From Bacteroidota bacterium (GTDB lineage Bacteria; Bacteroidota; Bacteroidia; Flavobacteriales; Flavobacteriaceae): a stretch of 64,000 nucleotides of DNA. Shown here piece after piece: positions 55,921 to 60,120 of this stretch (position 1 is its first letter; each line of letters starts with the position of its first letter). Below the pieces are notes generated by a model. That model saw only the letters and a list, made by a program, of their open reading frames with translations, did no database searches and was not told where the DNA came from. The position numbers were made by a program, and so were the translations under genes. Where the stretch lies: positions 796 to 64,795 of the forward strand of contig JAYUFL010000135.1 of NCBI GenBank assembly GCA_043738745.1. The letters are read 5' to 3'.

Positions 55921-56442
55921 TTATTTTTTAAGTTCTTCTTTTTTAGACAATAAAACCGTTCCAATCATTGCTACCAAAAGCAAAATCGAAGCATATTCAA
56001 ACGGAACCATAAAACCTTCTTTGTCGTCCAACAAAACGTTTCCTAGTTTTTTAATTGATTGATAATCAGTTCCTGAAACATCATATTCAGCAATAAACGG
56101 AACTGCATTTGTGAATATCAAAACCAATATCACACAAATAGAAACGAACGAAACAATTGCTCCCAAACGGGTGATTCTGGGTTTATGAACTTCGTTTTCT
56201 TTGTTCAAATTCATTAACATTATCGTAAAAAGAAACAAAACCATAATCGCTCCCGAATAGACAATTATTTGTACAATTGCCAAAAATTGCGAGTTCAATA
56301 ACAAAAAATGAAATGCGATTGTAAAAAAACAAACCACTAAATAAATAGCACTGTGAATAGGGTTTTTGCTGTAAATTGTCATAAATGCAGTTCCAAGTGT
56401 GACTGCCGACAATAAATAAAATATAATTAAAAATGTACTCAT
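55921..56442 (-). CDS. nuoJ: NADH-quinone oxidoreductase subunit J
   Basis: [31 protein letters not shown]. Confidence 0.94.
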
Positions 56443-56987
56443 TAATTCAAATTTAATTGTTGAGAATTTTGCATTGCAACATCCAAAGGCATTACCAATC
56501 GATCTTTTCCGAAAATAAAATCTTCACGTTTGCCGCTCGAAGGCACCAAAACTTTCGAAGTTGTCAAATAAATTGCATCTTTTGGACACGCTTCTTCGCA
56601 TAAACCACAAAAAATACAACGCAACATATTGATTTCATAAATCGAAGCATATTTTTCTTCTCTATACAAATGTTTCTCTTCTTTTGTGCGTTCGGCAGCC
56701 GTCATTGTGATGGCTTCTGCAGGACAAGAAAGTGCACAAAGTCCACAAGCCGTGCAATTTTCACGACCTTGCTCATCACGTTTCAACTGATGTTGCCCAC
56801 GATACACTGGACTCATTTCTCGAACTTGCTCCGGATAATGAATCGTTGCTTTTTTTCTAAAAAAGTGTTTTATAGTAATCAACAGCCCTTTCACAATGGC
56901 GATCAAATACATACTTTCAAAAAAAGTCATCTCCTTGTTCGAGACTTGTTTTTTACTTCCAGAAAGCGAAATTGTTTCTATTGACAT
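56442..56987 (-). CDS. nuoI: NADH-quinone oxidoreductase subunit I
   Basis: CTACGLCALSCP and CIFCGLCEEACP ferredoxin motifs. Confidence 0.95.
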   Translation of the reverse strand: MSIETISLSGSKKQVSNKEMTFFESMYLIAIVKGLLITIKHFFRKKATIHYPEQVREMSPVYRGQHQLKRDEQGRENCTACGLCALSCPAEAITMTAAERTKEEKHLYREEKYASIYEINMLRCIFCGLCEEACPKDAIYLTTSKVLVPSSGKREDFIFGKDRLVMPLDVAMQNSQQLNLN

Positions 56988-57013
56988 TCTTTATTTTATT
57001 TTATTTTATTTTT

Positions 57014-57108
57014 GGAGCCAATCCTGCTATTCGTTACAATCTTTTTTAAAATTTGCTTGCTTCGCCGCAAACTTTAAAAAAGGATTTCCACTGCTATCAG
57101 GGCTAGGG
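57014..57108 (+). repeat. Flavobacterial dispersed structured repeat, copy 1 (Flavo-1 RNA-like)
   Basis: CCAATCCTGCTATTCGTTACAATCTTTT-[hairpin]-AAAAGGATTTCCACTGCTATCAGGGCTAGG; homologous to the reverse complement of 60041-60120. Confidence 0.6.
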
Positions 57109-57130
57109 CATTCCGTTTCAATTCAACTTT

Positions 57131-57655
57131 TTAATTTTTATAACCAATTTTAGTTCTTTCGACTTTATTTTCGTGCTTATCCATCATTTCGTCAAGATAA
57201 GAAAACAAAAGTTCAGTATTTTTATCACTGTTGTCTAACCTTCTTTTAATTTCTTGAATATCAATTTTCAATGTCAAATTATTTGATAGAAATTCTCTCA
57301 TACTCACAAAAATTTCTATAATTTTTATGCTCATTTGAGATGCTTTATCACTTTTTACAACATTTGACAATTGCAAAATTCCGTGTTCTGTAAAAACATA
57401 AGGCAATGACCCGCCTAATGCCTGTTTAGAAGGTATCGCATTTTGCGATACCATAATTTCTGTTTCAATTTCATTCAATCTAAACATAAAATGTTCAGGA
57501 AATTTATCAGGATTTCTTGCGATTTGTTCTCGTAATCGATATGGTTTCACATCAAACAATATTGCTAAATCTCTATCTAACATCACTTTAGTATTCCTAA
57601 CGAAATAAATTTTATTTTCAATTATTTCATTTGGAATAATGATGCTGTCTTTCAT
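57131..57655 (-). CDS. ORF6N domain DNA-binding protein inserted in the nuo operon
   Basis: KVMLDRDLAILFDV, RNPDKFPEHFMFRL, LPYVFTEHG, C-terminal coiled coil and KIGY tail. Confidence 0.9.
   Translation of the reverse strand: MKDSIIIPNEIIENKIYFVRNTKVMLDRDLAILFDVKPYRLREQIARNPDKFPEHFMFRLNEIETEIMVSQNAIPSKQALGGSLPYVFTEHGILQLSNVVKSDKASQMSIKIIEIFVSMREFLSNNLTLKIDIQEIKRRLDNSDKNTELLFSYLDEMMDKHENKVERTKIGYKN
57432..57452. repeat. Palindrome copy A, inside ORF6N
   Basis: GGTATCGCA-TTT-TGCGATACC; minus strand encodes (M)VSQNAIP. Confidence 0.9.
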
Positions 57656-57669
57656 TTTAAATTTTTAAT

Positions 57670-57694
57670 AAGGTATCGCAAAATGCGATACCTT
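57670..57694. repeat. Palindrome copy B, 14 bp upstream of the ORF6N ATG
   Basis: AAGGTATCGCA-AAA-TGCGATACCTT. Confidence 0.9.
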
Positions 57695-57784
57695 TAGTTT
57701 TACCTTATGTAAGTTTATTTAAATTTCTGTTTTTAAATAACTTATGATATTTTAAAATAGTGTTTTTGATGCTTTTTATTCCAT

Positions 57785-57809
57785 AAGATATCACATTTTG
57801 TGATACCTT
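57785..57809. repeat. Palindrome copy C, degenerate, near the nuoH stop
   Basis: AAGATATCACA-TTT-TGTGATACCTT. Confidence 0.8.
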
Positions 57810-57847
57810 AAATTTATTTTTATATGCCAATTTGACTCCTCAAGTTA

Positions 57848-58900
57848 TTAAAACCCAAAATAAGTAGCAATTTCACTTTTCAAAAGCACAATTCCAACTA
57901 CAACTATATTAGCAATCGAAAGCGGAATCAAAATTTTCCAACCCAAATTCATCAATTGATCGTAACGAAAACGCGGAATCGTCCAACGCACCCACATGTA
58001 GAAAAATATGAATCCACAAATTTTTGCAAATAAAACAATTATTCCGATAACATTACCAATATTTATGCCCCAATTTTCAACAACCCAACCCATTCCTGGA
58101 TAATTGTATCCACCGAAGAATAAAACAGCCAATATTGCTGACGAAATAAACATATTTGCATATTCAGCAAACAAATAAAATCCCATTTTCATTGACGAAT
58201 ATTCGGTGTGATAACCACCAATTAATTCTGTTTCGCATTCTGCTAAGTCAAATGGCGTTCTGTTGGTTTCTGCAAATGCACAAATCAAGAAAATCAAAAA
58301 TGATAATGGTTGATAGAAAACATTCCAATTCATTCCGGCTTGTTGGGCAGAAATTTCTCTTAAACTCAACGTTCCAGTCATCATTAAAAGTGCAATCATC
58401 GATAATCCCATAGCAACTTCATAACTAACCATTTGCGAAGCTGCACGAACGGCGCCCATCAATGAAAACTTGTTGTTAGATGCCCATCCACCAATCATTA
58501 TTCCATAAACTCCAACAGATACAACTCCAAAAATATACAATAAAGCCACATCAATATCTGTCGCTTGAAGCATAATATCTCGACCAAATAAATGAAATTT
58601 ATCGCCCCACGGAATTACCGCACTCGTCATTAATGCTGTGGTCATTGCAATTGCTGGACCAACCATAAACAAAACTTTGTTTGGAGTATTGGGTTCAAAT
58701 TCTTCTTTCGAGAATAATTTTAAACCATCGGCAAGCGGTTGCAACAATCCGCCCCAACCTGCACGGTTTGGACCAACTCTATCTTGTAAATAAGCAGCAA
58801 CTTTGCGTTCTGCCCAAGTAGAATACATTGCCATAAGCATTGTAATTGCAAAAACCACAAAAATTACGGCGCTTTTTTCTATTATAAATGCAGTTTCCAT
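57848..58900 (-). CDS. nuoH: NADH-quinone oxidoreductase subunit H
   Basis: ERKVAAYLQDRVGPNRAG, QPLADGLKL, AETNRTPFDLAE, PRFRYDQLM. Confidence 0.96.
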   Translation of the reverse strand: METAFIIEKSAVIFVVFAITMLMAMYSTWAERKVAAYLQDRVGPNRAGWGGLLQPLADGLKLFSKEEFEPNTPNKVLFMVGPAIAMTTALMTSAVIPWGDKFHLFGRDIMLQATDIDVALLYIFGVVSVGVYGIMIGGWASNNKFSLMGAVRAASQMVSYEVAMGLSMIALLMMTGTLSLREISAQQAGMNWNVFYQPLSFLIFLICAFAETNRTPFDLAECETELIGGYHTEYSSMKMGFYLFAEYANMFISSAILAVLFFGGYNYPGMGWVVENWGINIGNVIGIIVLFAKICGFIFFYMWVRWTIPRFRYDQLMNLGWKILIPLSIANIVVVGIVLLKSEIATYFGF

Positions 58901-59968: not shown

Positions 59969-60040
59969 TAGACGAGATAAATGTGTAATTTTTAATTTTT
60001 AAAATCCCAAGCCAACGAAAATAAGCGAAAAACTTTTTCG

Positions 60041-60120
60041 CCTAGCCCCGATTGTAATGGAAATCCTTTTCTTTTTTTTCTTAAAAAAAGAAAAGATTGG
60101 AATGAAAAGCGGGAATTGCC
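60041..60120 (-). repeat. Flavobacterial dispersed structured repeat, copy 2 (Flavo-1 RNA-like)
   Basis: Minus strand GGCAATTCCCGCTTTTCATTCCAATCTTTT-[hairpin]-AAAAGGATTTCCATTACAATCGGGGCTAGG. Confidence 0.6.

Follow-up and report, generated by a model that had tools for sequence, protein, structure and literature searches.

A conserved palindrome at a common codon position of ORF6N genes, with further copies in the nuoH–ORF6N spacer of a nuo operon

Why should a small gene in a respiratory operon carry, within its own coding sequence, a palindrome that also occurs twice in front of it? The question is raised by a 64,000-nucleotide stretch of a Flavobacteriaceae genome (contig JAYUFL010000135.1 of assembly GCA_043738745.1; hereafter the window), in which an ORF6N protein is encoded between nuoH and nuoI and the palindrome GGTATCGCA-N3-TGCGATACC is present in three copies, one within the ORF6N gene (57432-57452) and two upstream of it (57672-57692 and 57787-57807). 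These three copies had been reported in a preliminary description made from the sequence alone, and all of them are confirmed: with at most 3 mismatches allowed, the 64 kb contain 3 matches to the pattern where 0.01 would be expected by chance, and 0 of 100 shuffles reach 3. A generic palindrome search of the 64-kb window found no comparable palindrome besides this locus. The gene and the palindromes around it are as follows.

57131 to 57655, minus strand: ORF6N gene, 174 amino acids (open reading frame list; Pfam PF10543; PADLOC PDC-S05; PHROG; AlphaFold2)
57430 to 57454, no strand: copy A, intragenic, with a perfect 9-3-9 core at 57432-57452 (pattern search; codon conservation; register; folding)
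57670 to 57694, no strand: copy B, proximal upstream, a perfect 11-3-11 palindrome ending 14 nt before the ATG (57655)
57785 to 57809, no strand: copy C, distal upstream, a CACA/TGTG variant of CGCA/TGCG with one G.T mismatch
57823 to 57844, minus strand: a fourth, decayed palindrome of class P1, CTTGAGGAGTCAAATTGGCATA / GAGGAGCCAAWTTGGCACCTC, 3 nt past the nuoH stop

Copy A reads GGTATCGCATTTTGCGATACC on the plus strand and GGTATCGCAAAATGCGATACC on the sense strand, and spans the last base of Met68 and the codons V69-S-Q-N-A-I-P75; including its flanks it is an 11-3-11 palindrome with one mismatch, which is forced by the ATG codon. The centre of copy B is inverted relative to that of copy A (TTT versus AAA on the sense strand). 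In copy C, the change to CACA/TGTG had been described as compensatory and does form a true pair, although the additional G.T mismatch of this copy (AAGATATC versus GATACCTT) had gone unmentioned. For comparison, 80 genomic loci encoding relatives were fetched, one genome per species, and L-numbers (L001 etc.) label the loci compared. The orthologue of copy C in L001 is a perfect palindrome, and the fourth palindrome, whose sequence class is that of the internal palindrome of LRSQ(I/F)GTS-type ORF6N genes, is better kept in L001, L003, and L056, the window version no longer having a fold. Single-strand folding with DNA parameters gives -9.4, -11.4, and -6.9 kcal/mol for copies A, B, and C, respectively, with z = -6.8, -6.9, and -4.5.

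Is the intragenic palindrome simply what the amino acid sequence happens to spell? Among 55 genes with the VSQNAIP patch, whose proteins are 55-100% identical, Ser70 is encoded by TCG in 100%, Gln by CAA in 98%, Asn72 by AAT in 100%, Ala73 by GCG in 98%, and Ile74 by ATA in 100% of cases; at other invariant residues of these genes the same amino acids use 2-6 codons, the commonest of them accounting for 35-70%. TCG and GCG are not preferred elsewhere in these AT-rich genes, and the only varying position among the VSQNAIP genes is Val GTA to GTG, giving a G.T pair. In a lineage with the patch IAEKAIPS the palindrome has been lost and the gene kept, and there the same codons drift (GCG to GCT, ATA to ATT). 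Gut-phage LKSQIVTS genes (L135, L137, L149, L164) keep 9-10 of 12 pairs with 2-3 mismatches, and real loss is confined to the IAEKAIPS class.

The same constraint is found across the family. The preliminary description had proposed comparing the patch in homologues with codon-shuffled controls, and the outcome of this comparison is clearly positive, across phyla. It covered 110 distinct ORF6N genes from six bacterial phyla and from phage contigs, with two archaeal genes checked apart, and the sequences were anchored on the protein motif and not on structure. At a common codon position, ORF6N genes have a palindrome whose arms measure 9-14 bp and whose centre is A/T, with its symmetry centre on the same nucleotide in 98 of the 110 distinct sequences. 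At least 10 of 12 positions are paired in 77% of the 110 genes, against 1.6% of synonymous-codon shuffles (mean 9.96 versus 6.2), and the best palindrome of the ORF6N domain lies exactly at the patch in about 80 of 100 genes. Amino-acid motif and codon bias are excluded as the cause by the synonymous shuffles and by the frozen rare codons TCG and GCG. The intragenic palindrome is a selected, DNA-level, dyad-symmetric element and an intrinsic and ancient part of ORF6N genes.

The two arms also change together. When 52 distinct sequences are aligned, pairing is found in 83.3% of cells, compared with 66.2% in column shuffles (0 of 500 reaching the observed value) and 28-38% with a slid partner; the covariation score is 0.44 versus 0.16, and both-side changes are seen in 10 of the 12 pairs. 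Some of the double changes that preserve pairing are non-synonymous, namely Gln to Lys with Ala to Ser in Treponema and Leu to Val with Ser to Arg in L096 and L128, and in L077 an Ile to Thr change is paired with a synonymous Val change. The pair GATATCGCA...TGCGATACT of L010 was considered as a compensatory pair, rejected on a register check, and not used. The centre consists of A/T only, the forms CAAAATG, CAAATTG, CAATTTG, and CATTTTG accounting for 92 of the 110 sequences. Inversion of the whole centre is seen within genes, where it exchanges Gln-Asn and His-Phe in four lineages (L020, L037, L065, L077), and between orthologous free copies, the centre of copy B being TTT in the window and AAA in the 95%-identical relative L001. 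Besides VSQNAIP, the sequences fall into discrete classes, each with its own palindrome.

Class LKSQ(I/F/N)ATS: TTGAAGTCGCAA-W-TTGCGACTTCAA
Class LRSQIVTS: GAGGTCACAAATTGTGACCTC
Class LRSQ(I/F)GTS: GAGGAGCCAA-W-TTGGCACCTC
Class VVANCDHL: GGTGGTCGCAAATTGCGACCACC
Treponema LRSKISTS: CTTGAGGTCGAAAATTTCGACCTCAAG
Legionella: TAAGGTCACAAATTGTGACCTTA

The patch is also palindromic in Sulfuricurvum, Haliovirga, Butyrivibrio (8-9-8), Alistipes, Bacteroides, 80 phage contigs, and two archaea; in tblastn searches the phage collection gave few matches and the plasmid collection gave cross-phylum examples. A Methanolobus genome contains the identical 25-mer ATGGTATCGCAAAATGCGATACCTT in a gene whose protein is merely 53% identical to that of the window. 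Two further genes show multiplied units: a Bacteroides ovatus plasmid gene (L090:1171-1722) has an in-frame duplicated unit, LRSQIATLEKGADDETNLRSQTVTS, and a Methanoperedenaceae gene (L281:1501-2412) has in-frame tandem units, LKSQIVTSNNLKSQIATS, forming two adjacent palindromes with different cores. The conserved motif LRSQIxTS/VSQNAIP of this Pfam domain is shaped partly by DNA symmetry and not by protein function alone, which should serve as a warning for annotation and evolutionary analysis.

Does this symmetry act in DNA or in RNA? Mismatches of the internal copies on the sense strand are G.T in 11 and A.C in 21 cases, showing no wobble preference, and G.U makes up about 2% of the paired cells in the 52-sequence alignment; in upstream copies the corresponding numbers are 31 and 18, which is not a significant difference. 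Scans of the window with Rfam at gathering score returned solely Flavo-1 and tRNAs, with nothing on the palindromes, and a scan of the locus with Rfam 15 by E-value gave no match to them at E<=5 save one chance-level hit. Because there is neither a G.U preference nor an Rfam match, the symmetry is better read as a duplex dyad, or as hairpins on either strand, than as a sense-RNA stem, a conclusion that is suggestive but not decisive. The letters following copies A, B, and C (CCTTCTAAAC, CCTTATTAAAAA, and TCTTATGGAA, respectively) contain no T-run or U-tract, so that intrinsic terminators are not apparent at this locus. In the predicted fold of the window mRNA, copy B, being the exact complement of copy A, forms a 23-bp stem with it, between whose strands lie the start codon and the first 68 codons. 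A conserved long-range pairing of this kind, between the copy at -37 and the internal copy, was rejected, since in L001 both copies have the same centre and the orientation of the centre is random.

What, then, are the upstream copies? The expectation raised by the window, that an upstream copy accompanies the internal one, turns out not to be general: family-type palindromes lie at most 260 nt upstream in 28 of 44 Flavobacterium nuo loci, but the same search succeeded in only 3 of 38 other genomes, 1 of 48 viral genes, and 1 of 8 plasmid genes (5 of 94 altogether). The related idea that the upstream variant matches the internal one holds in part. In its favour, an orthologue of copy B, with symmetric variants and AAA/TTT flips, occurs in 21 of 22 VSQNAIP-class nuo loci, and in the plasmid gene of Butyrivibrio, a clean case, the upstream site matches the unusual internal variant of that gene at 19 of 21 positions. 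The P3 class, which is that of the VSQNAIP genes, lies upstream of 21 of 22 VSQNAIP-class genes and 7 of 14 LKSQ-class genes, and also of 3 of 4 genes that have no internal palindrome. Against it, identical arrays stand before genes of different classes, for example in L020 and L058. Upstream and internal sites therefore correspond in part only.

As many as four palindrome classes (P1, P2, P3, P4) are arrayed in the nuoH-ORF6N spacers, and the order of the array in the L056 spacer is the order of classes of the three tandem ORF6N genes of L017. Homology of the arrays to ORF6N genes is confined to the palindromes, for which reason the upstream palindromes were rejected as mere leftovers of gene fragments, while the shared order may reflect erosion of tandem genes. 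Where the encoded proteins are nearly the same, the proximal sites at orthologous positions still vary by double changes that preserve the symmetry (GGTATCGCA, GGTGTCGCA, GGTATCACA), and in many loci the proximal copy lies 12-40 nt before the ATG. Free palindrome copies cluster around ORF6N genes, as shown by a positional histogram with peaks from -200 to 0 and at +200. A scan of metagenomes for the P3 class gave 109 stretches, with about 30 matches 30-210 nt upstream of an ORF6N domain, about 14 just 3' of one, and three within one; those left over are orphans, adjoin decayed remnants, or come from short contigs. Orphan copies with no ORF6N gene near them were seen on metagenome contigs L189, L204, L212, L176, L197, L184, L234, and L238; some have an A-run before and a T-run after them, like bidirectional terminators, and others are arrays of 2-3 classes.

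Autoregulation through a promoter, suggested in the preliminary description, is doubtful here. The Bacteroidetes -7 box TAnnTTTG is found in just 3 of 28 nuoH-ORF6N spacers, and because this consensus is so rare, the ORF6N gene of the window is probably read through from nuo. A promoter-operator model was rejected on the same ground, together with the absence of helical phasing between the sites (spacings calculated by hand). The suggestion that the palindromes are the ends of a mobile cassette likewise finds no support: they do not flank the gene but lie upstream of it and inside it, its 3' side is taken up by the Flavo-1 RNA motif, and the nuoH-nuoI position is constant in about 44 of the 80 fetched loci, with no empty site seen in this sample, which is made up entirely of ORF6N-bearing loci.

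The protein itself matches Pfam PF10543 (ORF6N) with 88.7 bits against a cut-off of 27.8, over model positions 1-86 of 86; this is the only domain found, and it has more than 4000 homologues. In addition, it matches PADLOC candidate defence family PDC-S05 at full length (PDLC04856, E=5.4e-55, residues 1-173 on a model of 177 positions) and PHROG 'anti-repressor' families. One PDC-S05 member with a RhuM domain is reported to reduce plating of T7 and T5 about 1000-fold (preprint 10.1101/2024.09.26.614923). The sequence search of the PDB with the ORF6N protein gave no match. An AlphaFold2 model built from 91 sequences reached a pLDDT of 82, compared with only 43 when 18 close homologues were used, and predicts a winged-helix-like N-terminal domain of about 100 residues followed by a long C-terminal helix, with the following elements.

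Residues 16-26: beta-hairpin
Residues 27-34 and 38-47: helices
Residues 57-59: strand
Residues 62-70: helix
Residues 71-85: loop
Residues 86-88: strand
Residues 90-100: helix
Residues 103-160: long helix (58 residues)

In this model, which contains a helix-turn-helix, the residues R42, Q44, R47, and N48, invariant in the close family, are on helix 38-47. In the protein, the palindrome corresponds to the point at which helix 62-70 gives way to loop 71-85, a place where insertions are tolerated in relatives. At orthologous nuo loci the genes are mosaics, in which the C-terminal half follows the species and the N-terminal domain is swapped between classes: L044 and L013 are 98% identical in the C-half, 67% in the N-half, and 40% in the middle, and for L058 and L020 the values are 97%, 77%, and 45%. 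It follows that predicted DNA-binding-domain classes are exchanged by recombination on a constant C-terminal coiled-coil half. The palindrome was rejected as the recombination breakpoint, since the mosaic junction lies near FTEHG and not in the palindrome.

The reading that we favour, though tentatively and with something short of even confidence, is that an ORF6N dimer recognizes the palindrome as its cognate dyad, a predicted binding that would provide promoter-independent feedback. ORF6N would be a winged-helix-like DNA binder that dimerizes via its long C-terminal helix and reads a dyad of about 25 bp. ORF6N genes seem usually to stand alone, with no promoter of their own, inside host operons (here between nuoH and nuoI), and a site within the gene could give negative feedback, by roadblock or occupancy control, that travels with the gene whichever promoter drives it. 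The extra upstream palindromes would be additional sites; some of them probably remain from tandem ORF6N paralogues that have eroded in the nuoH-nuoI spacer of Flavobacterium, and may have been kept because class-matched ORF6N proteins still bind them. Hairpin-templated strand switching during replication would account for the frequent AAA/TTT centre inversions while helping to keep the arms identical, and the centre inversions do show that strand switching happens.

It should be noted that several observations weigh against this reading. DNA binding by ORF6N is itself a prediction, and the Foldseek matches of the model, to the Dachshund/Ski winged helix and to MarR/MerR regulators, are weak (E=0.2). 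In most ORF6N genes the internal site is the sole site, and therefore classical operator logic is inapplicable; moreover, if ORF6N acted as a roadblock within the nuo operon, polar effects on nuoI-N would be expected. The greatest difficulty is that the symmetric mid-arm changes at orthologous upstream sites fit intrastrand pairing better than a fixed protein specificity, and strict arm complementarity would not be expected of a site read with fixed specificity unless strand switching or arm-to-arm conversion homogenizes the arms. Finally, the genes that have no internal palindrome (patch IAEKAIPS) keep the upstream P3 site, and, as described above, identical arrays precede genes of different classes. 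A more far-reaching form of the proposal, which we regard as improbable, is that the ORF6N gene is a protein-plus-site module in which one stretch of 25 nt has two roles, as DNA site and as coding sequence of a variable peptide, site and protein classes arise together, and centre inversion toggles amino acids (Gln-Asn and His-Phe, Ile and Phe) as a hairpin-driven switch. That the encoded peptide itself reads the site is pure speculation.

The same arm complementarity could instead reflect a DNA hairpin or cruciform, extruded for recombination, template switching, replication pausing, or structure-specific cleavage, with turnover, mobility, or duplication of ORF6N modules or of the palindromic unit as the result. 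Strict Watson-Crick covariation extends to the non-coding copies, including transversion pairs (GTCGCA/TGCGAC to GTAACA/TGTTAC, GGGGTTGCA/TGCAACCCC); the A/T-rich centre found throughout would favour extrusion, and the whole-centre inversions, between the window and L001 and inside genes, are of the kind expected. The in-frame duplications in B. ovatus and the Methanoperedenaceae archaeon, the N-terminal class swaps on a constant C-half (L044 versus L013), the tandem arrays and palindrome relics, and the integrase genes next door in several loci point the same way. The breakpoints, however, fall close to the conserved FTEHG segment, neither a recombinase nor an HUH protein shows a consistent linkage, centres of 1 or 3 nt misfit the core sites of tyrosine and serine recombinases, and about 44 of the fetched loci have a stable nuo locus; selection for evolvability alone would also be a weak force for freezing a site across phyla. 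We consider this explanation unlikely, and a slightly lower probability attaches to one at the level of RNA, in which mRNA hairpins (14 nt before the start and at codons 69-75) govern how the ORF6N and nuo transcript is translated, how it is processed, or how stable it is, possibly with the ORF6N protein binding as a translational autoregulator. Probable co-transcription with nuo would place the copies in the transcript, the proximal copy lies a short way before the ATG in many loci, the sole variable synonymous position (GTA to GTG) yields G.U, upstream copies show the G.T excess given above on the sense strand, the -37 copy of the window can pair with the internal copy, and some orphan copies resemble terminators (A-run, hairpin, T-run). 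Set against this, G.U is the rarer mismatch in internal copies and scarce among paired cells, and the upstream excess is not significant; Rfam gives no match, the window copies have no U-tract, the long-range pairing is not conserved, and the stems are conserved as discrete sequence classes and do not covary freely.

A partner other than the ORF6N protein might also read the site, be it ORF6N-PLD nuclease relatives, ORF6N paralogues encoded elsewhere, or a phage or host protein, the gene then being a decoy, an immunity mark, or a trigger site. This would agree with the full-length PDC-S05 match and the antiphage activity reported for the RhuM-domain member, with the same palindrome being carried by the long PLD-like forms, with genes lying within type I restriction-modification (R-M) operons (Treponema, Methanoperedenaceae) or beside Abi or ArdA genes, and with spacer arrays that include classes absent from the resident gene. 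The assayed member, however, is not an ORF6N protein, the window gene is between nuoH and nuoI in a respiratory operon and not in a defence island, a nuclease target within its own gene would be self-destructive, and the partner is hypothetical, so that we hold this explanation to be quite unlikely. Least of all do we believe that the palindrome has no function and arises incidentally from the amino-acid motif, from codon bias, or from self-correcting quasi-palindrome mutation, which seems highly improbable. In favour of this view, quasi-palindromes are known to be perfected by template switching, the IAEKAIPS lineage has kept the gene while losing its internal palindrome, and several genes of the nuo locus have become pseudogenes. 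Yet the synonymous shuffles and the frozen rare codons speak against it, these codons begin to drift as soon as the palindrome is gone, an identical 25-mer is found in Flavobacterium and Methanolobus despite 53% protein identity, and non-coding copies persist at orthologous positions.

How does this arrangement compare with known systems? In lambda O with ori-lambda and in pT181 RepC with its origin, the binding sites of an initiator lie within the initiator's own gene. As in ORF6N, these are dyad sites in the protein's own coding sequence, in a part of the protein that tolerates variation, and site and domain change together among relatives; unlike ORF6N, they are replication origins with several iterons and are read by initiator proteins, while ORF6N has one codon-fixed dyad, no link to replication, and only a predicted binding. 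The window gene, for its part, has a single dyad, lies in a chromosomal respiratory operon, and encodes no Rep or initiator domains. In Bacillus subtilis a parS site, a 16-bp palindrome, is located inside spo0J/parB, the gene of the partition protein ParB with its CTPase-driven spreading. This, too, is a palindrome inside the gene of a binding protein (a putative one in the case of ORF6N), but it is one of several chromosomal copies and has no family-wide codon position. The controller (C) proteins of R-M systems with their C-boxes and the MerR dimers resemble the putative ORF6N system in having a small helix-turn-helix or winged-helix dimer, a dyad near its own gene, and feedback, and MerR further resembles the ORF6N model in its N-terminal DNA-binding domain and long dimerization helix. 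Their operators overlap a promoter, however, whereas most ORF6N genes have neither an upstream site nor a promoter of their own and have the conserved site in the coding sequence.

Short imperfect palindromes in operon spacers, in mixed arrays and around an associated gene, with some terminator-like orphans, are also a feature of REP/BIME elements and their RAYT proteins. REPs, however, number tens to hundreds per genome and RAYT is an HUH/Y1 protein, whereas here the 64-kb window contains no copy beyond this locus, the ORF6N protein lacks an HUH domain, and the most important copy lies within the gene; one palindrome class has 109 matches in a whole metagenome collection. The nuoG motif of Rfam and viral cis-acting replication elements share with the ORF6N palindrome an overlap with a reading frame that constrains synonymous sites and leads to compensatory evolution, but they are RNA structures that tolerate G.U, unlike the ORF6N palindrome, which has neither a G.U preference nor an Rfam match. 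A literature search on ORF6N, on KilA-N with palindromes, on Flavo-1, and on PDC-S05 found no prior description of an intragenic ORF6N palindrome, and the element seems to be undescribed. To our knowledge, no other dyad is fixed at one codon position family-wide and co-evolves with the peptide that it encodes.

The ORF6N family is very large and present in bacteria, archaea, phages, plasmids, and defence loci, with almost no literature, 11 papers naming it, and no experimentally known function. The codon-fixed dyad provides a first concrete and testable handle on it, since a candidate cognate site can be read from each gene. If the protein does bind, the result would be a portable feedback device for promoter-less genes inside host operons, as well as a ready-made set of orthogonal protein-site pairs; if the centre inversion proves to be a switch, it would make up a device of self-referential specificity or phase variation for which no protein family offers a described precedent.

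The surroundings of the gene complete the picture. The interval 56442-58900 is entirely on the minus strand, in the order nuoH, a 192-nt spacer, the 174-residue open reading frame, a 143-nt spacer, and nuoI, with the following neighbours.

57848 to 58900, minus strand: nuoH, upstream neighbour of the ORF6N gene (open reading frame list; synteny by tblastn in about 44 loci)
56442 to 56987, minus strand: nuoI, downstream neighbour of the ORF6N gene (open reading frame list; synteny by tblastn)
57016 to 57108, minus strand: Flavo-1 RNA motif between the ORF6N gene and nuoI (Rfam RF01705, 72.4 bits)

The 64-kb window contains no second ORF6N gene. The approximately 44 fetched loci in which ORF6N occupies the nuoH-nuoI position, as judged by tblastn synteny, are all Flavobacterium-like, which shows that the Flavobacterium complex I operon is the carrier of a conserved non-respiratory insert composed of palindromes, ORF6N, and Flavo-1. 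At this position the ORF6N genes of L016, L020, L056, and L071 are pseudogenes with premature stops or frameshifts and a nearly intact palindrome, and tandem ORF6N genes occur in L017 (three, of different classes) and L008 (two). Flavo-1 lies directly 3' of ORF6N in 15 of 17 Flavobacterium nuo loci checked but in 0 of 17 non-nuo ORF6N loci, and the idea that it terminates an ORF6N cassette on the 3' side was accordingly rejected; the motif is counted here as locus architecture. A second Flavo-1 motif is present in another spacer of the nuo operon (60040-60120, plus strand, 79 bits), in the opposite orientation to the one at 57016-57108, and the transcriptome of F. psychrophilum likewise has Flavo-1 matches in both orientations (PMC9723704).

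Outside Flavobacterium, the VSQNAIP-class genes are single and mostly co-oriented behind housekeeping genes, the upstream neighbours being comM-like (three), XerC/D-like (three), trpS/tyrS-like, hipA, and lexA-like. The comM-like (Mg-chelatase family) genes directly upstream are those of L042, L055, and L074, and the XerC/D-like recombinase genes directly upstream are those of L026, L035, and L079, in each case from unrelated Bacteroidota. Other ORF6N genes are within type I R-M operons or adjoin integrase, Abi, or ArdA genes. In Aquimarina, a c4-2 RNA (RF02944, 49.8 bits; L030:322-397) lies about 390 nt upstream of the ORF6N gene; antirepressor genes of P1/P7 phages are controlled by c4 antisense RNAs.

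Towards its 5' end, the window ORF6N gene contains another inverted repeat, which is AT-rich (57592-57608 / 57622-57638). The version of this repeat in relatives, at about codons 10-21, is CTAATAAAAT-TT-ATTTTATTAG, which encodes NKIYFIR and has up to 15 pairs. As a second element this palindrome was rejected, since the amino-acid motif together with AT-rich codons seems to account for most of it (shuffle p 0.0 to 0.3). Finally, a profile search of a set of 5.8 billion sequences passed more than 6500 ORF6N proteins among 8000 candidates scored, and a widespread long form of about 290-300 amino acids was seen, in which ORF6N is joined to a C-terminal PLD-like domain (HDRF...GASLKD; weak PLDc_2 match). 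Examples are found in L084, L085, L086, L088, L089, L281, and L283 and among proteins P0121-P0240, and the long form is often encoded in type I R-M operons (hsdM-ORF6N-hsdS) or on plasmids.

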